Shown here in pieces: positions 3,466 to 62,281 of a stretch of 64,000 nucleotides of DNA. Position 1 is the stretch's first letter; every line of letters starts with the position of its first letter. Source of the stretch: Stanieria cyanosphaera PCC 7437 (GTDB taxonomy: Bacteria; Cyanobacteriota; Cyanobacteriia; Cyanobacteriales; Xenococcaceae); contig NC_019748.1 of NCBI RefSeq assembly GCF_000317575.1, positions 2,299,199 to 2,363,198 of the forward strand, written 5' to 3'. The position numbers and the translations under genes are program-made. The notes under the pieces are model-generated. The model was not told where the DNA came from, searched no databases, and saw only the letters and a list, made by a program, of their open reading frames with translations.

Positions 3466-3673
3466 GATATTTTCCTTTATACTTACTGTTTGATGGATAA
3501 CTTTTCCTCACACCAACAGCGAAACTGATCCAGTCCGATGATAAATAACAATACTGCTGAAAATAACTTAAGATTTAATTAAAATTAGCTATTTTCATAA
3601 CGATGAAGTACAGTCAAGACTTTGGCATTTGTTGATGGTTAATTATTCATCATCGATCGCTCATAACTGATAA

Positions 3674-4540
3674 ATGATAACTGATAACTGCATTATGTCT
3701 TCTCCTCCGATTCAATGGTATCCCGGTCATATTGCTAAAGCGGAAAAACAACTCCAAGAACAACTCAAACGAGTTGATGTTGTCTTAGAAGTTTTGGATG
3801 CAAGGATTCCTGTTGCTTCCCATCATCCCCAAGTAGCTGATTGGATTGGTGAGAAACCAAGAATATTAGTCTTAAATCGGGTTGATATGATTCCCAACGA
3901 AACTAAACAAGAATGGATCACCTGGTTTAAAGAGCGAAGAGAAAAACCCTATTGGACTAACGCTAAAGCGGGAAAAGGAATTAAAGCAGTTAAATATGCT
4001 GCTCAAGATGCAGGGGCTGCTATGAATCAACGCCGACGCGATCGCGGTATGCGTCCTCGTGCTGTACGGGCGGTAGTAATTGGTTTTCCTAATGTGGGTA
4101 AATCTGCTTTGATTAATCGTCTGGTGGGGCGTAAGGCAGTTGCTAGTGCGCGTAAAGCAGGAGTAACTCGTCAGTTGCAATGGGTGAGAATTTCCGATGA
4201 AATTGAGTTATTAGATGCACCTGGAGTGATTCCTTGGCGATTGGAAAATCAACAAGATGCGATTAAGTTAGCTATTTGTGAGGATATTGGTGAAGCTGCC
4301 TATGATAATCAACGAGTAGCTGCGGTTTTTGTGGATTTGTTGGTAGAGTTGGGTTTTGCTGAAGTATTACAATCTCGTTATCATCTCGATCCTTTGACTA
4401 TTACAGGAGAAAGTTTTATTCAAGATTTGGCAGACAAAGTTTATCAAGGAGATAAAGAAAGAGTAGCTCGCCTTTTACTGCATGATTTTCGCACAGGGGC
4501 AATGGGGCAAATACCCCTGGAATTACCAAATGAATTTTAG
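3674..4540 (+). CDS. rbgA: ribosome biogenesis GTPase A (YlqF/RbgA)
   Basis: IQWYPGHIAKA N-terminus, circularly permuted GTPase motifs, FPNVGKSALINRL. The true start is probably the internal ATG at 3695. Confidence 0.85.
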   Translation: MITDNCIMSSPPIQWYPGHIAKAEKQLQEQLKRVDVVLEVLDARIPVASHHPQVADWIGEKPRILVLNRVDMIPNETKQEWITWFKERREKPYWTNAKAGKGIKAVKYAAQDAGAAMNQRRRDRGMRPRAVRAVVIGFPNVGKSALINRLVGRKAVASARKAGVTRQLQWVRISDEIELLDAPGVIPWRLENQQDAIKLAICEDIGEAAYDNQRVAAVFVDLLVELGFAEVLQSRYHLDPLTITGESFIQDLADKVYQGDKERVARLLLHDFRTGAMGQIPLELPNEF

Positions 4541-10581: not shown

Positions 10582-13374
10582 ATGAATGTTCCTAAAACTT
10601 CCTTCGTTGCTTCTGGTTCAATTCCTGAGATTAGTAAAGATTGGCATACTTTGAACGTTGAAGAATCCTTAGCAATTCTTACCAGTGATTTTAATCAAGG
10701 ATTAACAGCGAAGCAAATTGAGCAAAGAAAGCAAGCTTTTGGTACAAATGAACTAAAAGAATCTGGCGGTCGCAGTGCTTTAGTAATTTTATGGGAACAG
10801 TTTACCAACATCATGTTAGTGATGCTGATTGCCGTGGCAATAGTATCAGCAGTTTTAGATTTTCGTCAAGGCACATTTCCTAAAGACGCAGTAGCAATTT
10901 TTGCAATTGTGATTGTCAACGGAATTTTAGGTTATTTACAGGAAAGTCGGGCAGAAAAAGCTTTAGCAGCCCTAAAACGTCTTTCTGCTCCCCAAGTGAG
11001 AGTGATTAGGCAAGGAAAAACTACTGAAATTCCTGCCAAGGATTTAGTACCAGGGGATATCATGCTGTTAGAAGCAGGAGTACAAATCGCTGCCGATGGA
11101 CGTTTGCTAGAAGCCCAAAACCTACAAGTGCGAGAATCGACTTTAACAGGAGAAGCAGAAGCAGTCCTTAAACAAGCTGATGTTATTTTACCTCATGATA
11201 GTTCTTTAGGCGATCGCATTAATCTAGTTTTTCAGGGAACGGAAGTAGTTTTAGGCAGAGCTAAAGTAATTGTTACCAAAACAGGGATGGACACGGAAAT
11301 CGGTCATATCGCTGCTATGATACAGAGTGTAGAAACCGAACCGACTCCTCTACAACAAAGAATGACTCAACTGGGAAATGTCTTGGTAAGTAGTTCTTTG
11401 GGTTTGGTTGCTATAGTGGTGATTGGTGGTGTATTACGAACAGGATGGCAGTTTTTTGAACAATTGTTGGAAGTGTCGTTAAGTATGGCAGTTGCCGTTG
11501 TTCCAGAAGGATTACCTGCGGTAGTGACAGTTACCTTAGCCATTGGTACTCAAAAAATGGTGCGTCGCCATGCTTTAATCCGTAAACTACCAGCAGTAGA
11601 AACTTTGGGTTCGGTAACTACGATTTGTTCCGATAAAACTGGAACTTTGACTCAAAATAAAATGGTAGTGCAGAAAGTTGAGACAGGTTCTTATCACTTT
11701 AACGTAACAGGAGAAGGTTATAACCCTGTAGGAGAATTTTTAAGTAAGCAGCATCAGCAACTGCAAACCGAACCAGAAGTTCAACAACTAATGCTTGCTT
11801 GTGTAGCGTGTAACGATGCTCTACTACAACAGAAAAAAACCCCCAAACAAACAGAATGGCATATTTTAGGAGATCCAACTGAAGGCGCGTTACTCGCTTT
11901 AGCTGGAAAAGCAGGAATTTTTAAAGAAAATCTAGACAGTAAAATGCCTCGGATGGGAGAGTTTCCTTTTTCTTCTGAAAGAAAACGGATGTCTGTGATT
12001 GTTGATAACGGAGACGGAACAAGCTCTTACTCCATGTTCACCAAAGGTTCACCAGAATTAATTTTAGAATGTTGCGATCGCATTTTGCTTAAAGACCAGT
12101 TAGTTCCAATTACTGCTGAACAAAGACAGCACATTCTAACTGAAAATGACGGCATGGCAAGTAATGGTTTAAGGGTACTGGGTTTTGCTTACAAACCTCT
12201 AAGCAGTGTTCCCGACGCAGAAGATCAAGAAAATACTGAACGGGAATTAGTTTGGTTAGGTTTAATTGGAATGCTTGATGCACCTCGTCCCGAAGTTAAA
12301 GAAGCTGTCAAACGTTGTCGAAGTGCAGGAATTCGTCCTGTGATGATTACAGGAGATCATCAATTAACTGCTATGGCGATCGCATCGGAACTAGGTATTG
12401 CTAGTCCCTACGAGCAGGTATTGACAGGACAAAGATTACAGGCAATGTCTGACTTGGAATTAGAAGAAGCGGTCGATCAAGTAAGTGTGTATGCTCGTGT
12501 TTCTCCAGAACATAAACTTCGGATTGTTAAAGCACTTCAAAAACGAGGTAAGTTTGTCGCCATGACAGGGGATGGAGTCAATGATGCACCAGCCCTGAAA
12601 CAAGCTGATATCGGTATTGCCATGGGTATTACAGGAACAGATGTCAGCAAAGAAGCCAGCGATATGATTTTGTTGGATGATAATTTTGCTACGATTGTGG
12701 CTGCGACGGAAGAAGGCAGAGTAGTTTACGATAATATTCGTCGTTTTATTAAATATATTTTGGGCAGTAATATTGGTGAAGTTTTAACGATTGCTGCTGC
12801 ACCTTTGATTGGTTTAGGTGGTGTGCCACTCTCTCCTTTACAAATTCTCTGGATGAACCTAGTTACTGATGGTTTACCTGCGCTGGCATTAGCAGTAGAA
12901 CCCGCCGAACCCAACGTGATGAAACGCCCACCCTATAGTCCCAGAGAAAGTATTTTTGCTCGTGGTTTAGGACTTTATATGGTCAGAATTGGGATTATTT
13001 TTGCCATTCTTGCGATCGCACTGATGGTTTGGGCTTATAATCACGCTCAAGCTGATGGTAATCCAGAACGCTGGAAAACTATGGTTTTTACAACTTTATG
13101 TTTAGCACAAATGGGTCACGCCCTGGCAATTCGTTCTGATACCCAATTGACTATTCAAATCAATCCTTTTTCTAATCCCTATGTTTTAGGAGCAGTTACT
13201 TTAACTACCATCTTACAACTACTTCTAATCTACGTTGAACCGTTACGTAATTTCTTTAATACTCATTGGTTGAGTCCTACAGAATTAGGAATTTGTGTCG
13301 GTTTTAGTCTGTTGATGTTTGTTTGGATTGAATTTGAAAAGATTGTTTTACGTTTGTTGAAAAAGCGAGGCTAA
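10582..13374 (+). CDS. P-type (P2-type, PacL/SERCA-PMCA-like) Ca2+-transporting ATPase
   Basis: 930 aa with DKTGTLT phosphorylation motif, [28 protein letters not shown], and 10 TM segments. Confidence 0.9.
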
Positions 13375-28017: not shown

Positions 28018-28296
28018 GTGGAAAAACAAACCTATATTATTTTAGATGCTATTGAGGTAAGTAAAATGTTGATTCCTTTGTTAATTTCCTTTAGTTTAGG
28101 AATAGTTGCGTTAACAATTCAAGCTCAACTTACTGAAGAAATTGAGGCTTTAGGTGCGGGGTTAGTAGCGGGAATTTGCTTGTTTCTTAGTTTAGTGTTT
28201 GCTCCCTTATTTATTAAACTTTTAATTCTCATGACAATTTTAGCTACTAATAAAAGAATTTTCGCTAGTTCTGCCGATCTAGACCTCTTAAATTAG
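28018..28296 (+). CDS. hypothetical small membrane protein (GTG start in the track; uncertain)
   Basis: Two predicted TM helices. No RBS. Weak. Confidence 0.2.
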   Translation: MEKQTYIILDAIEVSKMLIPLLISFSLGIVALTIQAQLTEEIEALGAGLVAGICLFLSLVFAPLFIKLLILMTILATNKRIFASSADLDLLN

Positions 28297-28339
28297 GACG
28301 TTTTATAACCTTTCTCGCTCTTGGTGAGGTACACCATTA

Positions 28340-28361
28340 CCAGTTACTAATTACTAATTAC
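28340..28361. repeat. (TAATTAC)n heptamer tandem repeat, ~3 units
   Basis: cagTTACTAATTACTAATTACTAATTA directly abutting MITE-like copy A. Confidence 0.8.
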
Positions 28362-28474
28362 TAATTATGAGGAATGAATAATCAACCATTAACATAAGCG
28401 AAGCGCATTATCGTAGGTCTCAATGCTCAACCAGGAAAATAAACTGTATCTCATTAATCTGAGAACCGCTATAT
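28362..28474 (+). mobile_element. MITE-like small repeat, copy A (family of 3 in this window)
   Basis: Shares its 5' end TAATTATGAGG(A/G)ATGAATAAT and 3' end AACTGTATCTCATTAATCTGAGAACCGCTATAT with the reverse complement of 53614..53737. Imperfect terminal inverted repeats ATTATGAG / CTCATTAAT. Confidence 0.55.
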
Positions 28475-28686
28475 CAATTAAACCAAATAAATTTAGTATT
28501 GAATAACAATTGTTTTAACTTATCTTTTTTCTGATTAATCAAAAACTAAAGCTTAGAAATAATCCTTTACGTAATATTTCTGTATTAAGAAAAGTACAAA
28601 AGCATGGCGATTACTGTTTCTTTGTAATTAAGATGGACTTACAATCAAGCGAGGTTTCTATTTCATAAGCTGAGAATATTAAACCA

Positions 28687-29034
28687 ATGAATTATCTCCT
28701 CCTGGTTGTTGCCATCCTTTCCATTACTATTGGGATTTTTGTTGGTGCATTGATAGTATGGTTTATTTACTTTTGGCGACGACGACAAATTGTAGATAGT
28801 TTAATTAAACCTGAAGATATAGTAGGTCTTTATGGCACGGTAGAAATTCCTTTTGATAGTGGCAGTAGAGGAAAAGTGCGAGTTAATCTTAAAGGATCGA
28901 TGTTGGATTTATTTGCTGTAACCGATGAAACCAGGCATTTCAATTTCGGCGATCGCGTTTTTATTATTCAAATGAAAGAAAATAAAGTCTGGGTAGTAGG
29001 AGAAGACTCGATTACAGTGATCAGTGACCAGTGA
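28687..29034 (+). CDS. NfeD-like (YuaF-type) membrane protein, flotillin partner
   Basis: N-terminal TM segment then an OB-fold-like region (GLYGTVEIPFDSGSRGKVRV). Lies immediately upstream of a flotillin gene. The last codons (VISDQ*) are supplied by the heptamer array. Confidence 0.65.
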   Translation: MNYLLLVVAILSITIGIFVGALIVWFIYFWRRRQIVDSLIKPEDIVGLYGTVEIPFDSGSRGKVRVNLKGSMLDLFAVTDETRHFNFGDRVFIIQMKENKVWVVGEDSITVISDQ

Positions 29035-29379
29035 CCAGTTATCAGTTATCAGTTATCAGTTATCAGTGACCAGTTATCAGTGACCAGTGACCAGTTATCA
29101 GTTATCAGTGACCAGTGACCAGTGACCAGTTATCAGTTATCAGTGACCAGTTATCAGTTATCAGTGACCAGTGACCAGTTATCAGTTATCAGTTATCAGT
29201 GACCAGTGACCAGTTATCAGTTATCAGTGACCAGTGACCAGTGACCAGTTATCAGTTATCAGTGACCAGTTATCAGTTATCAGTGACCAGTTATCAGTGA
29301 CCAGTTATCAGTTATCAGTGACCAGTGACCAGTTATCAGTTATCAGTTATCAGTGACCAGTTATCAGTTATCAGTGACT
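29015..29379. repeat. heptanucleotide tandem repeat array (CAGTGAC / CAGTTAT units, ~52 copies), STRR-like
   Basis: Perfect 7-bp periodicity over ~365 bp mixing two unit types. Then degenerates (CATCACT/CATCGCT). Confidence 0.95.
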
Positions 29380-29429
29380 ATTCATCACTCATCGCTTATC
29401 ACTCATCATTAAAATCTATAAATACAATT

Positions 29430-30773
29430 ATGGAATTACAAAATAATTTTCAAATTACAAAAGAACAAGAAGTAATTGTCTCTCAAGTACCTCAAGTTCA
29501 AGTGCAAAAAAGTAGTGCTAACAGCCTAATTTATACTAGTTTGCCTTTAGCTTTGGGTATCTTTGGCACAATTATTTTAATTTGGTTTCTCAACTCTTTT
29601 TTATGTATTTGTAAACCCAATGAAGTAGTAGTGCTTTCAGGCAGAAAAAGAAAAACCAGTGAGGGACAAGAAATTGGTTATCGGGTGTTAACTGGTGGTA
29701 GAGGTATTCGCATCCCGATTTTAGAAACGATTAAACGCATTGATGTCACGACGATGCCCGTACCCGTTAAAGTGACTAATGCCTATGCTAAAGGAGGAAC
29801 GCCTCTCAATATTCAAGCGATCGCGAATGTTAAAATTTCTAGTAATCCCAAGGTAGTCGGTAATGCTATTGAAAGATTTTTGGATCAAAATAGATCAGAA
29901 ATTGTTAGAGTAGCCAGAGAAACTTTAGAAGGTAATCTGCGAGGAGTAGTAGCAACTCTTACTCCCGAACAACTGAATGAAAACCGTTTACAATTTTCTG
30001 AACGCATCGCTTCTGATGTGAGTCGGGATCTGGTTAAGTTGGGTTTGCAACTAGATACTTTAAAAATTCAAAACATTTCCGATGATGTCGATTATCTTAA
30101 CTCTCTTGGTCGTCGACAAATTGCTTTAGTGATCAAAGAAGCAGAAATTGCCGAATCTAATGCCGTCAGTGAAGCCGAACAAATCGAAGCACAATGTGAA
30201 GAACAGGCATCCGTAGCTAAAACCCAAAATCGGATCGTAGTTCAAGATAAAGAAAACGAACTGCGGAAAATTAAAGCAGAATTAGACCAGAAAGCCCGTT
30301 CCGAAGAAGAACGAACCATTGCAGCAGCCCAAGAAGCCACTGCTAAAGCACAACAAAAACTACAAGCAGTCAGGGCGCAATTAGAACGCCTTCGTTTAGA
30401 AGCCGAACAAGTCTTACCTGCCGAAGCACAAAAACAAGCCAAAGAATTAATTGCTAGAGGAAACGCAGCAGGATTAAAAGAAAATACCGAAGCTTATGCT
30501 TTAGTCAATGAAATGTTATCGCAAGTATGGCAATCAACTGGTAAAGATGCCAAAGAATTATTCCTAATTCAACAACTAGAAACTGTTTTGCAAGAAGCCG
30601 TACAAATACCAGGCAAACTTAACTTAGAAAAAGTCAATGTGATTGATAACGGAGACGGAAAAGCGATCGCAAGTTTAGTTAAAGTCTATCCCGAAATTGT
30701 GGTGGAATTCCTCAACAGTGTCAACAAAACTCTTGGTATTGATGTCATTGGTACACTTAATCCACCAAAGTAG
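29430..30773 (+). CDS. flotillin-family SPFH/band-7 protein (FloT/YuaG-like), paralog 1
   Basis: N-terminal membrane hairpin, SPFH domain (ICKPNEVVVLSGRK...), C-terminal coiled coil. The track start at 29325 translates the heptamer array, so the start ATG at 29430 (MELQNNF) is preferred. Confidence 0.85.
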   Translation: MELQNNFQITKEQEVIVSQVPQVQVQKSSANSLIYTSLPLALGIFGTIILIWFLNSFLCICKPNEVVVLSGRKRKTSEGQEIGYRVLTGGRGIRIPILETIKRIDVTTMPVPVKVTNAYAKGGTPLNIQAIANVKISSNPKVVGNAIERFLDQNRSEIVRVARETLEGNLRGVVATLTPEQLNENRLQFSERIASDVSRDLVKLGLQLDTLKIQNISDDVDYLNSLGRRQIALVIKEAEIAESNAVSEAEQIEAQCEEQASVAKTQNRIVVQDKENELRKIKAELDQKARSEEERTIAAAQEATAKAQQKLQAVRAQLERLRLEAEQVLPAEAQKQAKELIARGNAAGLKENTEAYALVNEMLSQVWQSTGKDAKELFLIQQLETVLQEAVQIPGKLNLEKVNVIDNGDGKAIASLVKVYPEIVVEFLNSVNKTLGIDVIGTLNPPK

Positions 30774-30823
30774 AAGTAGTTCATGAATTAACCCTACTAC
30801 AGAAATTTTTCCCAGGAAAGATA

Positions 30824-31255
30824 GTGATGACTTACGACATAGATAAAGAATACGATTTGTGGTCACAAGAACAAGCTGATTCCCTACGAAATCGCGCCTT
30901 CGATCAATTAGACATTGACAATTTAATTGAGGAATTAGAAGCCTTGGTAAGAGGAGAAAAAAGTCCTGTAGAGAGTTTGGTTTATCAAATATTGCTGCAT
31001 TTATTACTGATTAATTATTGGCACGAAGAATCACAATGGAATCGTAACTATTGGGCATCAGAAATTACAGGTTTTAGACTGCAACTAAACAACAAATTAA
31101 CCACAAATTTAAAAAATCATGTTTTAAATAGGCTTGATTATTTATATCAAAAAGCCCATAAGGCAGCTATTAATAAAACTAAAAGTAGCATCAAAAGCGC
31201 TCTCGGCAAAGCCGAGGCGCGTACGCGATCGCTTTCCTTCAGAATGTATCTATAA
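30824..31255 (+). CDS. DUF29-family protein
   Basis: YDLWSQEQADSLRNRAFDQLDIDNLIEELE pattern typical of cyanobacterial DUF29. Confidence 0.65.
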   Translation: MMTYDIDKEYDLWSQEQADSLRNRAFDQLDIDNLIEELEALVRGEKSPVESLVYQILLHLLLINYWHEESQWNRNYWASEITGFRLQLNNKLTTNLKNHVLNRLDYLYQKAHKAAINKTKSSIKSALGKAEARTRSLSFRMYL

Positions 31256-31358
31256 TTTTGAAAATCTGATCGATGACAATTTTTTTTGGCAACAATTTTG
31301 ATTAACCAAAATCAATCAAAGTTCCTAAGAAAGTCTACTATTTAAAATTAATAAAACT

Positions 31359-32642
31359 ATGGAAATTATTACCCTTTTACTTGCAATTTTTGGTTTAGGT
31401 ACAGGTGCTGGCTGGTTTGTGATCCGCAATCTTTATTACATTTGTCAGCCTAGTGAAATTTTAATCTTTGCTGGTACTAAAACTCGCAACAGTGAAGGCA
31501 AAGAAGTAGGATATCGTCTCGTTAAAGGTGGTAGTAGTATCAAAATCCCCATGCTGGAAGAAGCTTTCCGTATGGATTTAACTAATATGATTATTGAACT
31601 TAAAGTAGCTAATGCTTATTCTAAAGGCGGAATTCCTCTCAAAGTAGAAGGAGTTGCTAATATTAAAATTGCTGGTGAAGAACCCACTATTCATAATGCG
31701 ATTGAACGTTTACTCGGCAAAAGTCGTAAAGAAATTGAACAATTAGCCAAAGAAACCTTAGAAGGTAATCTACGCGGTGTATTAGCAAGTCTTACTCCCG
31801 AACAAGTCAACGAAGATAAAATTGCCTTTGCTAAAAGTCTCCTTGACGAAGCCGAAGACGATTTAGAAAAATTAGGTTTGGTATTAGATAACTTGCAAAT
31901 TCAAAATATTTCTGATGATGTTAGTTACCTCAATTCCATTGGGCGCAAACAACAAGCCGAATTATTAAGAGATGCCCGTATTGCTGAAGCTACCGCCAAA
32001 GCCGAATCTACCATTAAATCATCGGAAAATAAAAAAATCACTTCTCTGCGACAAATTGGTAGAGATTTAGAAATTGCCAAAGCAGAAGCTGAAAAAAGAA
32101 TTAGAGATGCTATTACCAAACGAGAAGCCTTAGTCGCCGAAGCAGAAGCCGAAGTAATTGCCGAAATTGCTAAAGCAGAAGCCGAACTTGCCGTACAAAC
32201 CGAAAGAATTAAACAAGTACAACAACAGTTACAAGCCGATGTTGTCGCCCCTGCCGAGGCACAATGTAAACAAGCGATCGCTAAAGCTAAAGGTGATGCA
32301 GCGAGTATTATAGAAGATGGGAAAGCCCAAGCAGAAGGAACAAAACGCCTCGCCGAGTCTTGGCAAGCAGCAGGAAACAATGCTAGAGAAATTTTCCTCT
32401 TTCAAAAACTCGAAACCCTGATCAAGATGATGGCTGCGGGTGTACCAGAAGTAGAGGTTGAAAGCGTTACTGTAGTTAACGGTAAAGATGGTAATACTGC
32501 GACAAAGTTAGCTGCTTTTATGGAACAATTGCGTCAGACAACAGGTATAGATGCAGCACAAATTGCCCACAATTTATCAAACAACAACTCGTCGATTAAA
32601 AAGATCGAAACTAAAATAGAACCACAAAAACTTGATGATTAA
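31359..32642 (+). CDS. flotillin-family SPFH/band-7 protein, paralog 2
   Basis: Same architecture as paralog 1 plus C-terminal EA repeats (AEAEAEVIAEIAKAEAELA). Confidence 0.85.
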   Translation: MEIITLLLAIFGLGTGAGWFVIRNLYYICQPSEILIFAGTKTRNSEGKEVGYRLVKGGSSIKIPMLEEAFRMDLTNMIIELKVANAYSKGGIPLKVEGVANIKIAGEEPTIHNAIERLLGKSRKEIEQLAKETLEGNLRGVLASLTPEQVNEDKIAFAKSLLDEAEDDLEKLGLVLDNLQIQNISDDVSYLNSIGRKQQAELLRDARIAEATAKAESTIKSSENKKITSLRQIGRDLEIAKAEAEKRIRDAITKREALVAEAEAEVIAEIAKAEAELAVQTERIKQVQQQLQADVVAPAEAQCKQAIAKAKGDAASIIEDGKAQAEGTKRLAESWQAAGNNAREIFLFQKLETLIKMMAAGVPEVEVESVTVVNGKDGNTATKLAAFMEQLRQTTGIDAAQIAHNLSNNNSSIKKIETKIEPQKLDD

Positions 32643-33499: not shown

Positions 33500-33826
33500 T
33501 TTCTGGAAAAATAGTGAAATATTTTTTATTAATAATTAGATTATCAGTTTAAAGTTATTGTAAATTTATACTTAATTATTATTTAAATTTTGTATCAAAA
33601 GTGTAAAAAAAAAGCAGGTTTTTCTATTATTTGAATATTTTTGAAATTTAGTAATCAATATATTTATCCACTTATAAAACTCTCATTTTTGTTTAATCAT
33701 TATCTCATTGTGATTAACAAATATTTTTCAGTCAAAAAATATCTTGTAATTTTAAAACTTAACTAGTGGGATGCTCGTCACGCGCAGGCAAGGGGCTGTG
33801 ACTCAAATTCTTTGAGTCTGAGTTTT

Positions 33827-34669: not shown

Positions 34670-34786
34670 TAAAGGCAGAAGGCAGGTATTAGTTGTACCT
34701 CATGAATTTTAGCAACGCTATAGCTGATAGTTAGTTGCTACTTTTTACTTGTTACTTTTTACTTAATCTTTGGTAACTGATCACTG

Positions 34787-35485
34787 TTAAACGCCAACAG
34801 CAAAACTAGCCAAAACACCTTCAAACAAAGCCTTGCCATCAGTTATCCCAATCGCTGCATCGGCTGCCCTTTCTGGATGAGGCATCATGCCTAAAACATT
34901 TCCTTGTTGGTTAATAATGCCAGCAATGTTGTCTAAAGAACCATTCGGATTACTATCTTGGTTGACTTCTCCTGTCGCACTACAATACCTAAATAAAACT
35001 TGACCGTTATCTTCTAAAGTTTTTAAAGTATCACTATCAGCAAAATAACGTCCTTCACCATGAGCGATCGGTAAAGTAATTACTTGTCCTGAAGTATAAT
35101 TACTAGTCCAAGGTAAATCACTTCTTTCGACTTTCATCGGGACGCGATCGCAAATAAAATGTAAATCACGATTGCGAATTAATGCCCCTGGTAATAAACC
35201 TACTTCTGTTAAAATTTGAAAGCCATTACAAATACCTAAAACTAGCTTACCTGCTTGGGCGTGTTCGATCACACTTTTGATCGCAGGAGAAAACCGAGCG
35301 ATCGCACCACAGCGAAGATAATCACCATAGCTAAAACCACCAGGTATAACTACCAAATCTAGAGCAGATAAATCTGTATCCTGATGCCAAATCATTCGAG
35401 TTGCAACATTTAATAAACCTTCAGTAACCGTAGCGACATCGCGATCGCAATTTGAACCGGGAAAGACAATGATACCGACTTTCAT
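34787..35485 (-). CDS. purQ: phosphoribosylformylglycinamidine synthase subunit PurQ (glutaminase)
   Basis: [16 protein letters not shown], catalytic Cys in GICNGFQ, and H/E pair. Confidence 0.9.
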
Positions 35486-42908: not shown

Positions 42909-44822
42909 ATGACCATTTCTTCTGCTGTAGAATTTCAAGACGCTTTTGATGTGATCGTCATTGGGGCCGGTCATTCTGGCTGTGAAGCTGCTTTAGCTGC
43001 TGCACGCTTGGGTTGTCGTACTTTGATGTTGACTCTTAATCTAGATAAAATCGCTTGGCAGCCTTGTAATCCTGCGGTTGGAGGACCTGCCAAATCTCAA
43101 TTAACCCACGAAGTTGATGCTTTGGGTGGAGAAATTGGCAAAATGGCAGACCGTACTTATCTGCAAAAACGTGTCCTTAATTCTTCTCGTGGTCCTGCTG
43201 TCTGGGCATTAAGGGCGCAAACCGATAAACGCGAATACGCTGCGGTAATGAAAGGGATTGTCGAAAATCAGGTCAATCTGTCGATTCGGGAGGGAATGGC
43301 GACGGATTTGGTGTTGGGGAAGAATGATGAGGTTATTGGAGTTCAAACTTACTTTGGAACTTGTTTCGCTGCTAAAGCCGTAGTTTTAACTACTGGCACT
43401 TTTTTGGGCGGACGTATCTGGGTAGGTAATAAATCAATGGAAGCAGGTAGGGCAGGAGAATTTGCAGCCATCGGTTTAACAGAAACTCTCAATCGATTTG
43501 GTTTTGAAACAGGAAGATTAAAAACAGGAACACCTGCCAGGGTAGATAAGCGTTCTGTAGACTATAGCAAAATGGAAGTTCAACCTCCAGATGAGGAGGT
43601 ACGTTGGTTTTCTTTTGACCCCGAAGCTTGGGTAGAAAAAGAACAAATGAATTGCTATCTAACTCGAACTACCGCCGAAACCCATCAAATTATTCGGGAC
43701 AATCTGCATTTATCTCCTGTTTATGGTGGTTGGGTTGATGCCAAAGGACCTCGTTACTGTCCTAGCATCGAAGACAAAATTGTGCGTTTTGCGGATAAGG
43801 AAAGCCATCAAATTTTTATCGAACCTGAAGGTAGAGATATTCCTGAACTTTATATTCAAGGATTTTCGACTGGTTTACCTGAAAATTTGCAATTGGCAAT
43901 GCTCAGAAGTCTTCCTGGTCTAGAAAAATGCGTCATGCTGCGTCCTGCTTACGCTGTGGAATACGATTATTTACCTGCGACTCAGTGTTATGCAACTTTG
44001 ATGACCAAAAAAATTGAGGGGTTATTTTCCGCCGGTCAAATCAATGGAACTACTGGTTATGAAGAAGCAGCAGCCCAAGGTATCGTTGCAGGAATCAATG
44101 CAGCTAGGTTTGCACGGGGACAGGAGATGATTGTTTTTCCTCGGGAAGAAAGTTATCTGGGTACACTAATTGACGATCTCTGTACCAAAGATTTACGCGA
44201 ACCCTATCGAATGCTGACTAGTCGTTCTGAATATCGCTTAATCTTGCGTTCCGATAATGCTGACCGCCGTTTAACTCCTAGGGGGCGAGAAATTGGTTTA
44301 ATTGACGATCGCCGTTGGCAATTATTCTGTGATAAACAAGCCAAAATTGCAGCAGAAAAAGAACGACTATTTGAAACCAGAATCAAAGAAAGAGATGAAG
44401 TTGGTATTGCGATCGCAGCAGTTACGGAACAAAAAATTAAAGGTTCAATTACTTTAGCGGATCTTTTGCGTCGTCCTGGTTTTCATTATCAACATTTAGA
44501 ACAATACGATTTAGGAAATCCTCAATTAAATCTCATCGAAAAAGAAGGCGCAGAAATAGATATTAAATACTCTGGTTACATCAAACGTCAGCAAATTCAA
44601 ATTGACCAAATTGTTCGCTATAGCAATCGCAAATTATCTTCAGAAATTGATTATATGAAGATTGAAACCTTATCAATGGAAGCCAGAGAAAAATTAACCA
44701 AAGTTAGACCTTTAACTATTGGTCAAGCCTCTAGAATTGGCGGAGTAAATCCTGCCGATATCAACGCATTATTAGTTTATTTGGAAACAAAAGAACGAGT
44801 AAAAGCAACAGTTATCAGTTAG
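42909..44822 (+). CDS. mnmG: tRNA uridine 5-carboxymethylaminomethyl modification enzyme MnmG (GidA)
   Basis: 637 aa. FAD-binding [22 protein letters not shown] and GGEIGK motifs. Confidence 0.9.
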
Positions 44823-52850: not shown

Positions 52851-53534
52851 TTGATGAAAATTCTCGTAGTTGAAGATGACGAGCGTATTAGTGATGCGAT
52901 CGCGGAATATCTTTCAGATCAGCATTATGCCGTAGAGACAGCTTATGATGGTCAGTCTGCGTGGGAACTTTTAGATGTATTTACTTACGATCTCGTTTTG
53001 CTTGATGTAATGCTTCCCCAAATGGATGGAATTACTCTTTGTCGTAAACTGAGAACTAAAGGTCACGAAACTCCTATTTTGATGCTCACAGCCAAAGACA
53101 CTCTAAATAATAAAATAGAAGGTTTAGATGCTGGTGCTGACGATTACTTAGTTAAACCCTTTGAATTACCAGAATTATCCGCTCGCATTCGTGCTTTATT
53201 GCGCCGAGGTGGTTCTAGTACTCCTCCTGTTCTTACTTGGGGAGAATTACGTTTAGACCCCAGTACTTGTGAAGTTTTTTATCACGAAGAATTGCTTCCC
53301 TTGAGTCCGAAAGAATATAAACTTTTGGAATTCTTTTTACGTAATGGCAGAAGAGTATTTAGTCGCGCTCAGATTCTAGAACATCTGTGGCCGTTTGAAC
53401 AAGTACCAGAAGAGGCAACTGTCAAAGCTCATATTCGAGGTTTAAGACAAAAACTCGAATCAGCAGGCGCTCCCCACGATCTGATTGAAACTGTTTATGG
53501 TTTGGGTTATCGACTTAAAGAACAACCAGAATAA
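52851..53534 (+). CDS. OmpR-family response regulator (REC plus winged-helix)
   Basis: MKILVVEDDERI, LLDVMLPQMDG, and C-terminal trans_reg_C (VYGLGYRL). Confidence 0.9.
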   Translation: MMKILVVEDDERISDAIAEYLSDQHYAVETAYDGQSAWELLDVFTYDLVLLDVMLPQMDGITLCRKLRTKGHETPILMLTAKDTLNNKIEGLDAGADDYLVKPFELPELSARIRALLRRGGSSTPPVLTWGELRLDPSTCEVFYHEELLPLSPKEYKLLEFFLRNGRRVFSRAQILEHLWPFEQVPEEATVKAHIRGLRQKLESAGAPHDLIETVYGLGYRLKEQPE

Positions 53535-53613: not shown

Positions 53614-53737
53614 ATATAGCGGTTCTCAGATTAATGAGATACAGTTAATTTCCTTGGTTGAGCGTTAATAGTTGATGGTTGATGGTTGGTCGCTATGCGC
53701 ACCTTCGGTGAGGTTAATTATTCATCCCTCATAATTA
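53614..53737 (-). mobile_element. MITE-like small repeat, copy C (full length, minus orientation)
   Basis: Its reverse complement matches copy A at both ends and copy B over the 5' half. Confidence 0.55.
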
Positions 53738-53782
53738 GTAATTAGTAATTAGTAATTAGTAACTGATAACTGATAATTGTTT
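53735..53782. repeat. heptamer tandem repeats (TAATTAG)x4 followed by (TAACTGA)x2
   Basis: Seen directly in sequence, abutting MITE-like copy C. Confidence 0.85.
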
Positions 53783-53857: not shown

Positions 53858-55210
53858 TTGGCTATGTTTCAAAGTTTACGTTGGCGACTGCTTCTTTCTT
53901 ACTTAACAGTAATGGCAGCAATTTTAAGTGTATTTGGCATGGGTGTTTATGTATTTTTTAGTCGCAATCTCTACCGTCAGTTAGACAAAAAATTATTAAC
54001 CTTAGCTCAATCTGCTGCTCCCGCTTTTACCGAAGTAGAAAAAACAGGTAGTAGTTATCTCAATCAGGTAGATAAAGTTCCTTGGCGAGATATTTTTAAC
54101 CGCGATAAACAAAGTTTAGAATGGTTTGATGCCAAAGGTAATTTGTTGGGAAGTAAAGGGTTTATTCAATTAGAACTTCCTCCTGTGACTGGCGCAGCTA
54201 ATCTTCAACACAGAAAAACAAAATTTCCTGTTCGTGCTTATACTATTTCAGTTTTTAAAGATGGTTCTAGTCCTGATCAGCCTTCTTTAGAAGGTTATAT
54301 TAGAGCTAGTCAGTCAATTGAAGAAATTGAAGCCGTTCAAATTCAACTTTTTTGGGTATTAATTTTTGGCGGATTGATGACTCTAATTTTGATCGGTTTA
54401 GGTGGTTTTTGGTTAGCTCAAAAAGCAATCGAACCAATTGAAGAAAGTTTTCAAAAACTTAAACAATTTACTGCTGACGCATCCCATGAATTACGAGGGC
54501 CTTTAACTGCGATCAAAGCTTCTGTCGATGTGATGCAATCTCATCCCGAACGAATCCATCCTAAAGATGCTAAAAAAATTACTGCGATCGCTAGTGCTAC
54601 TACTCAAATGAGTCATTTAATTGAAGATTTGCTGTTTTTAGCCCGAACAGATAAGGCAGTAGTTATTCCTGACCGCGAGAAAAAACCTGTTTTGCTTAAT
54701 ACCATTCTTCAAAATATTATTACTCTGCTTGAACCTTTCGCCCAAAATAAAGATATAGCTTTAAAAGCTGATTTTTTATTAGAAGTATTAGTATTAGGCG
54801 ACCAATCTCAACTTACTCGTCTTTTTTCTAATTTAGTTGAAAATGCACTGCAATACACTCCTGCTGGAGGAGAAGTTAGGATTCATCTTCACAAACAAAA
54901 CCGTTATGTAGTTGTGAGTGTTAAAGATACAGGAATTGGAATTGCACCAGATCAAATTCCGTTTGTCTTTGACCGCTTTTGGCGTGCTGATAAAGCTCGT
55001 TCTCGTCGTGAAGGAGGTACTGGTTTAGGATTAGCTATTGCCACTGCGATCGCGAAAAGTCATGGCGGAAAAATTACAGTCAGCAGTGAACTAGATGTGG
55101 GCAGTTGTTTTCAAGTGCGAATTCCGATGTTAATAGTTAGTGGCGCAACTAAACCAGAAAAAAAGGTATTGCAAAAACAGCCTTTGATTGAGGCTGAAAC
55201 AACTGATTGA
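53858..55210 (+). CDS. sensor histidine kinase (2 TM, HAMP-like, HisKA, HATPase_c), partner of the OmpR regulator
   Basis: H-box FTADASHELRGPLTAI. N-box LVENALQYT. G-boxes DTGIGI and GTGLGLAIA. Confidence 0.85.
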   Translation: MAMFQSLRWRLLLSYLTVMAAILSVFGMGVYVFFSRNLYRQLDKKLLTLAQSAAPAFTEVEKTGSSYLNQVDKVPWRDIFNRDKQSLEWFDAKGNLLGSKGFIQLELPPVTGAANLQHRKTKFPVRAYTISVFKDGSSPDQPSLEGYIRASQSIEEIEAVQIQLFWVLIFGGLMTLILIGLGGFWLAQKAIEPIEESFQKLKQFTADASHELRGPLTAIKASVDVMQSHPERIHPKDAKKITAIASATTQMSHLIEDLLFLARTDKAVVIPDREKKPVLLNTILQNIITLLEPFAQNKDIALKADFLLEVLVLGDQSQLTRLFSNLVENALQYTPAGGEVRIHLHKQNRYVVVSVKDTGIGIAPDQIPFVFDRFWRADKARSRREGGTGLGLAIATAIAKSHGGKITVSSELDVGSCFQVRIPMLIVSGATKPEKKVLQKQPLIEAETTD

Positions 55211-59398: not shown

Positions 59399-62281
59399 AT
59401 GAATAAAGCTTTCTCTTCTCTTTTCCAGGTTAGTTTTTTTTCCTGCTGTTTGTTAATTGCAAATAATCCTGTGACGGCACAATCAATTAGTTCTGATGGT
59501 ACACTTCCCACACCTACAGAAATAACTCCGACAGCTACGGGAGTTGAAATTAACGGAGGAACAACTAGGGGAGGGAATTTATTTCATAGTTTCAAAGACT
59601 TTTCTGTACCAACTGGCAGCGAGGCTTTTTTTAACAATGCATCTGATGTAGTTAATATTCTCAATCGCGTTACAGGGGGGAATATTTCTTCAATTGATGG
59701 GTTATTAAGAGCGTCGGGTAGTGCGAATTTATTTTTAATCAATCCTGCGGGGATTGTTTTTGGTGAAGGTGCAAGTTTAGATATTGGTGGTTCGTTTTAT
59801 GGAAGTACTGCTGATAGTATTTTGTTTCCCGATGGCGTAGAGTTTAGTGCGACGGATACGCAGGCAGAACCGATTTTAACGATTAATGCGCCGATTGGGT
59901 TGGGTTTTCGTAATGAACCTGGGGATATTGTTAATCGTTCTAACTTTGGTTTAACTGAAACAGTGCTTGATGAAACTGTTAATCCAGCTTTGGCAGGAGT
60001 TGAGTTTACTATTCTCAATTCAGTTGGATTAGAAGTTAATCCTGGTAAAACTATAGCTTTAATTGGAGGTAACGTTTTCCTAGAAAATGCTGGAGGAATA
60101 ACTGCACCAGGAGGAAGAGTCGAATTAGGAGGATTATCTGAAGCGGGAACAATTACGATTAATAATGATGGTAGTTTAACTTTTCCTGATGTAATTGCTA
60201 GAGCAAATGTATCATTAACGGGACAATCAAGAGTAAATGTTGCTGCTGATGGTGGTGGATTTATTAATGTTAATGCTCGTAATTTAAGTTTATTAGAGCA
60301 AAGTGAATTATATGCAGGTATAGCTGAAGATAGCGGTTTTCCTACTGCACAAGCAGGAGATATTACGATTAATGCTACTGATTCAGTTCAGTTAGTTGGA
60401 AGTGGTGGAATTGTTGATAGTAATCCCTATCTATTACAGTTTAATGACTACGATACTGCAATTCGTAATTTAGTCGGATTACGTCCAGGTCTAGAGAGCG
60501 ATCGCAATTTAGATAGAAATCCTAAAGCTAATAGTACTGCGATAGGGAATGCAGGGTCAATTTTTATTAATACTAATTTATTACAAATTAGCGCTCGCGC
60601 TGGGGTAATTGCTAAAACTTATGGACAAGGTAATACAGGCAATATCAAAGTTCAAGCTAATGAAATTCAGCTTAATGGAGGAGACTTTCTCAACCAAGTA
60701 ATCAAAGGGATAGGTAATGCTGGAAATATAGATATTGAGACATCATCATTATCTGCTCAAAATTTAGCTTTTATTATTTCAAATACTTCTGGAAAGGGTA
60801 ATGCAGGCAACGTTACTATTAAAGCTGATGAACAAGTTTATTTTGATGGGAGTAATGATACTAATTTTGGTATAACTCAGTTAAATGTTCAGGTACAAGA
60901 GGAAGCAGAAGGAAACGGAGGCAATATTCAAATTGATACTGGTAATTTTGTGCTTAAAGGTGGTGCAAGAATTTTTGCTGATACTGCTGGAAAGGGTAAT
61001 GCAGGAAATGTTGTTATAAATGCTGATAATCAAGTAACACTCGAAGGAGTAGGCGAAAGAAAAAGCGAAATATTTAGTACAGTAAGCAACTCTGCTCAAG
61101 GAAATGCAGGAGATATCATTATCAATACTCAAACATTAGATATTAACAATGGTTCAATATTTTCTTATACTGCTGGGAATGGTAACGCAGGAAATATTAA
61201 GATTAATGCTACTGAACAATTTTCTTTAGATGGTAGTAATGATCCTGATAATCAAATAACTCAGTTAAATGTTCAGGTGCAAGAGAGTGCAAAAGGAAAT
61301 GGAGGCAATATTGAGATTGATACAGATAATTTATCTCTTACAGGTAATTCTTTAATATTAGGTGATACTGTTGGGGATGGCAATGCAGGAAATATTTTGA
61401 TTAATGCTAATAATCAAGTGGCACTAGAAGAAAAAAGTGAAATTGTTATTAATGTTGGTAAATCTAGTCAAGGTAATTCTGGCAATCTAGAAATTAATAC
61501 CAATTTTTTGTCTCTTAATGATGCCAAATTATTAGCCGAAACAACATCAGATTCAAGTGGTAATATTATTCTCAATATTGATGAAAATTTGACTATACAA
61601 AACAACAGTCTGATCTCTGCACGAGCTTTAAATAATGCCGACGGGGGCAATATAAATATTGATACTGATTTTATTGTCGCTTTCCCTAATCAAAACAACG
61701 ATATCATTGCCGATGCTCAACAAGGAAGTGGTGGCAAGATCACAATTAACGCTCAATCTGTTTTTGGTATCGAAGAACGTCCTTTAAATCCCATTACTAA
61801 CGATATCAATGCTAGTTCTGCACTGGGCGCACAATTTGATGGAATTGTTGAAATTATCACTCCTGATGTCGATCCTTTTCAAGAAACCTCGGAAACACCA
61901 GAAAATATTGTTGAACCAGATCAAGTAGTTGCTGGAGTCTGCGATGCTACTCAAACAGCACAAGATATCCTCGCTGGTAGAACTAATTCTTTTGTAGTTA
62001 AAGGAAAAGGTGGTATTCCGCCTACACCTGTTGAACCAATTCCTGCTGAAAACTTGGTTATCAATGGTCAATCTGTAGTACCAAATGCTCAGGTGCAGGG
62101 GAGAAGAGAAGTAGACGAGAAAGCTTTACAAGAACAATATCCACCGATTATGACATCTCAAGGTGCGATTTATCCTGCACGGGGAATAGTAAAAAATCCT
62201 GATGGTACAGTGATTTTGACTCGCTATCCTACCGATAATACTCAACGTGTTCCTAATAATTCTTCTAATTGTGGTGTTTAA
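59399..62281 (+). CDS. large exoprotein with N-terminal TPS/haemagglutination-activity domain (TpsA-like) and beta-helical GNAGN repeats
   Basis: Signal peptide, then LINPAGIVFGEGASLD (NPNGI-type motif). About 12 repeats of GxGNAGN(I/V). 960 aa. Confidence 0.75.
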   Translation: MNKAFSSLFQVSFFSCCLLIANNPVTAQSISSDGTLPTPTEITPTATGVEINGGTTRGGNLFHSFKDFSVPTGSEAFFNNASDVVNILNRVTGGNISSIDGLLRASGSANLFLINPAGIVFGEGASLDIGGSFYGSTADSILFPDGVEFSATDTQAEPILTINAPIGLGFRNEPGDIVNRSNFGLTETVLDETVNPALAGVEFTILNSVGLEVNPGKTIALIGGNVFLENAGGITAPGGRVELGGLSEAGTITINNDGSLTFPDVIARANVSLTGQSRVNVAADGGGFINVNARNLSLLEQSELYAGIAEDSGFPTAQAGDITINATDSVQLVGSGGIVDSNPYLLQFNDYDTAIRNLVGLRPGLESDRNLDRNPKANSTAIGNAGSIFINTNLLQISARAGVIAKTYGQGNTGNIKVQANEIQLNGGDFLNQVIKGIGNAGNIDIETSSLSAQNLAFIISNTSGKGNAGNVTIKADEQVYFDGSNDTNFGITQLNVQVQEEAEGNGGNIQIDTGNFVLKGGARIFADTAGKGNAGNVVINADNQVTLEGVGERKSEIFSTVSNSAQGNAGDIIINTQTLDINNGSIFSYTAGNGNAGNIKINATEQFSLDGSNDPDNQITQLNVQVQESAKGNGGNIEIDTDNLSLTGNSLILGDTVGDGNAGNILINANNQVALEEKSEIVINVGKSSQGNSGNLEINTNFLSLNDAKLLAETTSDSSGNIILNIDENLTIQNNSLISARALNNADGGNINIDTDFIVAFPNQNNDIIADAQQGSGGKITINAQSVFGIEERPLNPITNDINASSALGAQFDGIVEIITPDVDPFQETSETPENIVEPDQVVAGVCDATQTAQDILAGRTNSFVVKGKGGIPPTPVEPIPAENLVINGQSVVPNAQVQGRREVDEKALQEQYPPIMTSQGAIYPARGIVKNPDGTVILTRYPTDNTQRVPNNSSNCGV

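Follow-up and report, generated by a model that had tools for sequence, protein, structure and literature searches.

Short tandemly repeated repetitive (STRR) elements were originally defined in heterocyst-forming cyanobacteria, from which Mazel et al. are said to have described, in 1990, STRR1 (CCCCAGT), STRR2 (TTGGTCA) and STRR3 (CAACAGT). Here we compare with these and related repeats a 52-unit heptanucleotide array, which lies between a short NfeD-like gene (nfeD) and a flotillin gene (floT) in a 64,000-nucleotide stretch of the Stanieria cyanosphaera PCC 7437 genome (contig NC_019748.1), referred to as the window. STRRs have been located between hupS and hupL (PMC2670836), and Anabaena/Nostoc PCC 7120 has 26 copies of GGGGATT in tandem between its pecE and pecF genes (Rehm et al. 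2015, PMC4692102). Direct repeats of the heptamer TAACTGA are present in marine Beggiatoaceae, in five Bacteroidetes and in 15 cyanobacteria, among them Stanieria of the Pleurocapsales (MacGregor 2015, Front Microbiol 6:1397, PMC4679880). In cyanobacteria the TAACTGA arrays have up to 43 copies and frequently contain other heptamers as well, and most differences between the arrays of related strains are indels whose lengths are multiples of 7 nt (PMC4679880). As cited in two later papers (PMC4679880, PMC4692102), Mrazek, Guo & Shah (2007) found heptanucleotides to be the most over-represented units in genomes rich in long simple sequence repeats (LSSRs), including cyanobacterial genomes; by the same citations, LSSRs are mostly non-coding, and polymerase slippage was proposed as their origin.

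The array is built of two heptamers, CAGTTAT and CAGTGAC. CAGTTAT is a reverse complement and cyclic permutation of TAACTGA (canonical rotation AACTGAT), an identity that was missed in an earlier reading of this DNA from its letters alone (the sequence-only reading). The array is a hyper-expanded member of the cyanobacterial STRR/LSSR heptanucleotide class, of the TAACTGA = CAGTTAT family. Like the published TAACTGA repeats, it consists of exact heptamers in tandem at an intergenic site, but its runs are broken by CAGTGAC units, which make up nearly half of it, its 52 units exceed the published maximum of 43, and it overlaps the 3' end of a gene. In Beggiatoaceae, TAACTGA is in the forward orientation a few nt before the start codon, whereas here it is reversed and 52 nt from the ATG; cyanobacterial copies do not follow the Beggiatoaceae rule (PMC4679880).

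The array shares with the STRRs a 7-bp unit in tandem, and its genome, as with STRRs, has many arrays dispersed through intergenic DNA and several unit families. The units themselves are different (rotations ACCAGTG and AACTGAT here, versus ACTGGGG, AATGACC and AACAGTC for STRR1-3), and the host is of the Pleurocapsales/Xenococcaceae type and non-heterocystous, unlike the heterocystous STRR hosts. The sequence-only reading had called the array STRR-like, and this agrees with a scan of tandem periods from 4 to 12, in which, within 6-12, the window contained arrays of period 7 only, and shuffled sequences contained none. It had also noted that CAGTGAC reads CTGGTCA on the other strand, close to STRR2; the two agree at six of seven positions. 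Like the pecE-pecF array, this one is a long, perfect run of heptamers placed between two operon genes that point the same way. The pecE-pecF repeat is rich in G and forms G-quadruplexes; G-runs are missing from the units found here, which have little structure. The array also fits the LSSR definition (a unit of 1-11 nt, longer than expected by chance), and differs from other LSSRs not in kind but in its extreme length and its traceable founder units.

To place its length, we compared the array with 113 period-7 arrays found in a set of collected cyanobacterial loci (numbered with the prefix L; L141 and L154 are IMG/VR contigs). The median was 4.3 copies and the maximum 21.4, in an array that ends at a contig end, so that the 52-copy array is about ten times the median and 2.4 times the longest surveyed. 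AACTGAT, equivalent to TAACTGA, was the commonest unit (11 of 113). Together with the published TAACTGA, STRR and operon-spacer precedents, this indicates that the repeat class is known and that the present array is a length outlier within it. It is one of the longest TAACTGA/STRR-type heptamer arrays of which we are aware, in the Pleurocapsales, a lineage in which heptamer repeats are little described.

Structure of the array and its counterparts in relatives

The array (Table 1) contains 52 consecutive 7-mers on the forward strand, with no indel over 364 bp: 28 CAGTTAT, 23 CAGTGAC and a single CAGTGAT, which is unit 1. Writing x for CAGTGAT, G for CAGTGAC and T for CAGTTAT, the order of units is xGGTTTTGTGGTTGGGTTGTTGGTTTGGTTGGGTTGTTGTGTTGGTTTGTTG. 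Tandem Repeats Finder (TRF) reported a period of 7 with 51.6 copies (score 407), and in addition a higher-order period of 56 bp. The dimer pattern CAGTKAYCAGTKAY, allowing at most one mismatch, matched the window 58 times, compared with 0.25 matches expected from shuffles. In 51 of the 52 units, the bases at positions 5 and 7 change together, which indicates that two founder units were copied, rather than mutated independently.

The order of the two unit types is not random. A block of 14 units (98 bp) is present twice, 17 units apart (P ~0.02 against permutations), the variance of run lengths is low (P ~0.04), and the autocorrelation of the unit order peaks at lags of 8, 13 and 17 units (z ~2.7-2.8). 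This order fits duplication of multi-unit blocks. No point decay was found in the 52 units, which adjoin a decayed heptamer array (reported by TRF as 29382-29408, period 7, 3.9 copies, 80% matches). An undecayed array next to a decayed neighbour suggests recent growth or ongoing homogenisation.

These data bear out the earlier description of a heptanucleotide array of two unit types and ~52 units, and correct its right border, which had been placed at 29400: the perfect array stops at 29378. Of the 395 nt that separate the nfeD stop codon from the floT start, the array takes up 344, its first 20 bp being coding; the statement that it fills the nfeD-floT spacer is accurate to that extent, and does not apply to the remainder before the floT start.

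The neighbours of the window FloT protein belong to Xenococcaceae, Pleurocapsa, Waterburya and Hyella genomes or metagenome-assembled genomes (MAGs), with 78-97% identity, followed by Nostocales with ~70%. At the DNA level, the locus L001 shares 90% identity with the window in nfeD and 92.6% in floT, and L119-L121 share 91% in nfeD. The nfeD-floT spacer is 69 bp in L001 and 53 bp in L119-L121. Homology detected by blastn breaks off at the borders of the array, at 29012 and 29419 with L001, and at 29027 and 29419 with L119-L121.

The short spacers of these relatives contain the units of the window array. In L119-L121 the spacer reads ...ATT T CAGTGAA CAGTGAT GGATAG, GGGGCGAACTGCCGTTCGCC, AGTA CAGTTAT TAATAAAC...ATG, with two CAGTGA(A/T) units at the 3' end of nfeD, and a GC-rich palindromic element separating them from CAGTTAT. 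A single CAGTTAT lies ~33 nt before the floT ATG in both L001 and L119-L121, and the CAGTGA dimer is missing in L001. The window array is composed almost only of these two unit types. The presence of CAGTGA-type and CAGTTAT units in short spacers at the same site points to growth in place from proto-repeats, and since both types can, unusually, be traced to one or two copies in relatives, the locus offers a concrete picture of the birth of an array.

The palindromic element (TAGGGGCGAAC...GTTCGCC(C)GTAC, ~25-45 nt) occurs in L001 (5931-5975), in L119 (4349-4375), and in the spacers of L004, L008 and L015; in L004 it is inserted in an array of TAAGTAA heptamers. It resembles a miniature dispersed element, and a search for it across the 64-kb window returned no copy.

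The array most likely expanded in place, is probably near-neutral, and probably does not act as a phase switch, a promoter or a terminator. Two proto-repeats would have been amplified by slipped-strand mispairing, by unequal recombination of units and multi-unit blocks, or by both, and would have expanded until they met and intermixed. The expansion would have overwritten the last few non-conserved codons of nfeD and its stop, which could be tolerated because CAGTGAC holds TGA and ends every sense frame within three units. The array would then be transcribed as a passive untranslated stretch of 395 nt in an nfeD-floT mRNA, with floT initiated de novo from its own conserved A/U-rich leader.

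Borders of nfeD and floT

The nfeD open reading frame (ORF) ends with ATT ACA GTG ATC AGT GAC CAG TGA, encoding ITVISDQ followed by a stop. Counting from the second base in the T codon, the array supplies the six last codons together with the stop, which lies in unit 3; that the terminal codons and stop come from the array had been proposed in the sequence-only reading. In orthologues, the tail beyond the conserved ...NKVWVV motif varies from 0 to ~15 residues.

The label nfeD had also been assigned from the letters alone, and its support is weak but consistent. A Pfam search with the 115-aa window protein by itself gave no match. PF01957 (NfeD) was matched by 23 of 30 orthologues (best E 2.9e-6), and the top PDB match of the orthologue profile was Bacillus subtilis YuaF (2k14, E 0.0087). 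In more than 60 cyanobacterial loci an NfeD-like gene lies directly upstream of a Band_7/flotillin gene. The arrangement in the window, with a short NfeD-like gene followed by an SPFH/flotillin gene, is that of the NfeD-flotillin operon of yuaF-floT type. Together, the orthologue matches and the adjacency to flotillin make "short NfeD-like gene upstream of floT" a fair label.

At the other border, 52 nt separate the end of the perfect array from the floT ATG. A 482-aa ORF can be read from an upstream GTG, and the sequence-only reading had regarded its additional 35 residues as artefactual. Close flotillin orthologues agree with this: they mostly begin at an ATGGAA matching 29430, and the sequence upstream of ATGGAA is not conserved. 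The longer ORF is thus an artefact of a frame that stays open through T-units. Shine-Dalgarno motifs were absent from the floT leader (29419-29429). Within the array, the only coding capacity found was a 40-aa mechanical ORF on the forward strand, and stops occur in every frame of both strands. The array demonstrably replaces the end of nfeD without harm, makes the untranslated gap before floT about six-fold longer and misleads ORF callers. The practical value of the locus lies mostly in annotation, since the array fakes a flotillin extension and writes the last residues of NfeD; arrays of this kind also break or truncate short-read assemblies.

Tests of function and competing explanations

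The nfeD-floT spacer is not a preferred site for heptamers. Among non-redundant orthologous spacers, 10 of 62 (16%) contained a period-7 array, compared with 47 of 237 other gaps (20%), and the units found in the orthologous spacers differ between lineages. When pooled, members of the CAGTKAY/TAACTGA family had no preferred orientation with respect to the genes beside them (9:8 at 5' sides, 5:6 at 3' sides). The window by itself had hinted at an orientation rule, with three sense copies at stops and two antisense copies before starts, and this was lost in the pooled counts. Scanning of the forward strand from 28259 to 31843 detected no sigma70-like promoter and no intrinsic terminator. A search of Rfam assigned no family to the array, returning only two sub-threshold snoRNA-like chance matches, and folding of the array as single-stranded DNA indicated that both strands are essentially unstructured.

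Unit-wise change was observed elsewhere in the family. L141 and L154 come from separate metagenomes and share 99.55% identity across 6.45 kb. Their arrays of interleaved CAGTTAT and CAGTCAT units (L141, reverse strand, ~11051-11260; L154, 3019-3214) are exactly one 7-nt unit apart in length (25 versus 24). The orthologous ChaN-PurQ spacers of the window and L001 contain the same two kinds of unit in different numbers: TGGTAAC TGATCAC (2 units) in the window, and two TGGTAAC, three TGGTCAC and a degenerate unit (5-6) in L001. At L001 9971-10125, a CAGTTAT array is broken by a run of 100 N, either a scaffold gap or a masked stretch, and its counterpart in the window (33750-33808) is a plain 58-bp spacer. 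Long arrays of this unit therefore occur at other loci in relatives, with their length hidden in short-read MAGs. With two distinguishable and interleaved units, the nfeD-floT array would, given a culture, provide a convenient natural marker for the step size and rate of slippage.

Several points weigh against near-neutral expansion in place. The searches of genomes and metagenomes, including those for exact NfeD and FloT (both versions), returned no contig of the same species; the best matches were 97% (genomes) and 92% (metagenomes) for FloT, and 92% for NfeD. Copy-number variation at this locus, its rate of change and its neutrality are therefore matters that we infer; the differences observed were those between species (52 versus 2+1 units) and the one-unit polymorphism at another locus of the family, in L141 and L154. 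The polarity could be the reverse, the relatives having lost an array by collapse and gained the palindromic element by insertion, the compared loci including no outgroup with a clean spacer. Youth may account for the length, 2.4-fold above the survey record, and for the lack of point decay, but so may selection or homogenisation. The genes nfeD and floT are presumed to be co-transcribed, and the promoter scan covered only sigma70-like consensus sites. In addition, the sense RNA of the array has a predicted minimum free energy of -95 kcal/mol (z -2.6 versus dinucleotide shuffles), and forms 5-bp GUGAC:GUUAU wobble helices.

The fold of the sense RNA, in which these helices stack while the antisense RNA is essentially unstructured (z +1.2), favors an alternative in which the array functions as an RNA element between the two cistrons, and sets the expression of NfeD relative to FloT by way of the stability or processing of the mRNA or the access of ribosomes to it. 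By analogy with the REP/BIME elements of E. coli (repetitive extragenic palindromic sequences and bacterial interspersed mosaic elements), it might serve as a platform for an RNA-binding protein of the Csp, S1 or CsrA kind, or form a long imperfect duplex. The array lies within a likely operon. Roles in transcript stabilisation or translational coupling have been proposed for the hupS-hupL STRRs (PMC2670836), and in translational regulation for TAACTGA repeats (PMC4679880). However, when the observed order of units was compared with 300 unit permutations, it folded no better (z -0.33), and a better fold is predicted for a half-and-half order than for the observed one; RNA structure as the function was rejected on this ground. 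Furthermore, the closest relatives manage with array-free spacers of 53-69 nt, other orthologous spacers hold unrelated heptamers or none, the family is without a preferred orientation, and the repeat is reversed and distant from the start codon, unlike in the BOGUAY pattern. We consider an RNA element unlikely.

A more far-reaching version would make the array a selected intercistronic module, whose units pair with each other or attract a protein that binds the heptamers specifically, as RNA or as DNA, and whose copy number tunes the stoichiometry of NfeD and flotillin; period-7 repeats in general might then arise from a dedicated mechanism, rather than from generic slippage. We regard this as decidedly improbable. 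If it were true, a 52-unit array with two markers would be a natural recorder of the step size of that mechanism. Taken alone, the array does not explain the preference of cyanobacteria for 7 bp, or whether heptamer repeats have a function.

A role as a recombination or rearrangement substrate, a hotspot that shuffles flanking genes, was raised in the sequence-only reading; it has been suggested for very long heptamer arrays in Microcystis and Gramella and proposed for long arrays (MacGregor 2015, PMC4679880), and CAGTTAT-family arrays at several sites and on both strands of the window provide dispersed homology. Most of these other copies are only 14-28 bp, however. The order nfeD-floT-DUF29-floT2 is shared by the window and L119-L121, the nfeD-floT adjacency is kept in 60+ loci, and the synteny break in L001 lies ~170 bp upstream of nfeD rather than at the array. 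There is very little to recommend this role for the present array. The break itself can be traced: the only window match upstream of nfeD in L001 (L001 4-547) is the 3' end of a 960-aa ORF with a two-partner secretion (TPS) domain, at 59399-62281 in the window, and synteny upstream of nfeD is thus rearranged between the two genomes.

Mis-estimation of the repeat during assembly could have produced an artefactual length or unit order, and heptamer arrays do break or truncate short-read assemblies, as seen at the contig end of L010 and the N run of L001. The strict 7-nt register over 364 bp, the irregular but structured order of the two unit types, the clean junctions with homology to relatives on both sides, and the contiguity of the 64-kb window make such an artefact hardly credible.

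Contingency loci, in which a change in unit number switches a reading frame or the spacing of a promoter, share with the array a simple repeat near a gene boundary that changes by whole units; the AGAT repeats in the 5' untranslated region of Moraxella uspA2 are an example cited in MacGregor's paper (PMC4679880). Here the repeat lies neither in the body of an ORF nor between promoter elements. The sequence-only reading had suggested that slippage could modulate the C-terminus of NfeD or the translation of floT. We simulated the loss and the doubling of each of units 1-6, one unit at a time. Only the deletion of one of units 1-3 altered NfeD, extending it from 115 to 129 aa (+14, in the tail), and all duplications, as well as all changes from unit 4 on, were silent for NfeD. 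The suggestion thus reduces to at most 14 additional residues of a variable tail, and the array cannot shift the frame of floT, which starts 52 nt beyond it. Phase-variable switching or remodelling of the NfeD C-terminus or of FloT translation, for which a unit that is not a multiple of 3, the overlap with the nfeD end and the unit-wise indels in the CAGTTAT family could be cited, is the least credible explanation, given that the left border, from which the nfeD frame is read into the array, is fixed, that this frame ends in unit 3 and the conserved domain is never lost, that floT has its own conserved leader, and that 364 bp with no promoter elements around them are far too long for a promoter spacer.

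Neighbouring genes and other heptamer arrays

Table 1. Features of the nfeD-floT locus and CAGTTAT-family heptamers elsewhere in the window
Feature	Position	Strand	Remarks
CAGTTAT x4	3663-3690	-	TAACTGA forward on +; upstream of GTPase-like ORF
Short NfeD-like (YuaF-type) membrane protein gene, 115 aa	28687-29034	+	N-terminal transmembrane helix and beta-rich domain
Perfect heptamer array	29015-29378	+
Overlap of array and nfeD	29015-29034	+	Codons T-V-I-S-D-Q and TGA stop, from units 1-3
Spurious in-frame extension of floT, 35 aa	29325-29429	+	GTG at 29325; created by array; 482-aa ORF
Decayed heptamer array	29379-29409	+	TATTCAT CACTCAT CGCTTAT CACTCAT CAT, ~4 units; adjoins perfect array
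A/T-rich floT leader	29419-29429	+	Ends …AAATACAATT before ATG; DNA homology with relatives resumes here
Flotillin (SPFH/Band 7) gene floT, 447 aa	29430-30773	+	Pfam PF01145, E 4e-24; start ATG 29430
DUF29 gene between two flotillin paralogues	30824-31255	+	Pfam PF01724, E 6e-29
Second flotillin paralogue (floT2)	31359-32642	+	Pfam PF01145, E 6e-24
CAGTGAT CAGTTAC	34773-34786	-	Directly after TAA stop of PurQ-like gene (34787-35485, -)
CAGTTAT CAGTTAG	44809-44822	+	Supplies TAG stop of mnmG/gidA (42909-44822)
TAACTGA-family array	53759-53779	-	TAACTGA forward on +; beside TAATTAG x4.4; between response-regulator and histidine-kinase genes

The product of floT matched the NCBIfam FloT model NF058507 with E 6e-37 and 127.7 bits, far under the curated cut-off of 700, and is thus described as SPFH/flotillin-like rather than assigned as an equivalog. 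In L001 the DUF29 region is largely gone, and homology to the window picks up again at 31082. The other genes of the window are ordinary chromosomal ones, including those for phosphoketolase, MnmG, a PurQ-like protein, a KaiC-like protein and two-component systems.

At least eight further, short period-7 arrays are present in the window, all of them intergenic or touching gene ends. The purQ-like gene and mnmG/gidA, both housekeeping genes, end at CAGTTAT-family heptamers, as nfeD does. The 323-bp spacer between the genes for an OmpR-type response regulator (52851-53534) and a histidine kinase (53858-55210) contains three heptamer arrays at 53655-53779: TGGTTGA x4.9, TAATTAG x4.4 and TAACTGA x2.4.

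Outside the window, two Pleurocapsa-type loci (L010 6739-6888 and L074 2801-2936) have AAGTAGC arrays of 19-21 copies, the next-longest in the survey, immediately downstream of floT, the one in L010 running into the contig end. Among IMG/VR sequences, 33 contigs contained at least five CAGTKAY units, and ~22 of them were low-GC contigs with CAGTTAT (= TAACTGA) arrays. The occurrence of TAACTGA arrays on putative viral or proviral contigs may bear on the patchy distribution of this repeat.

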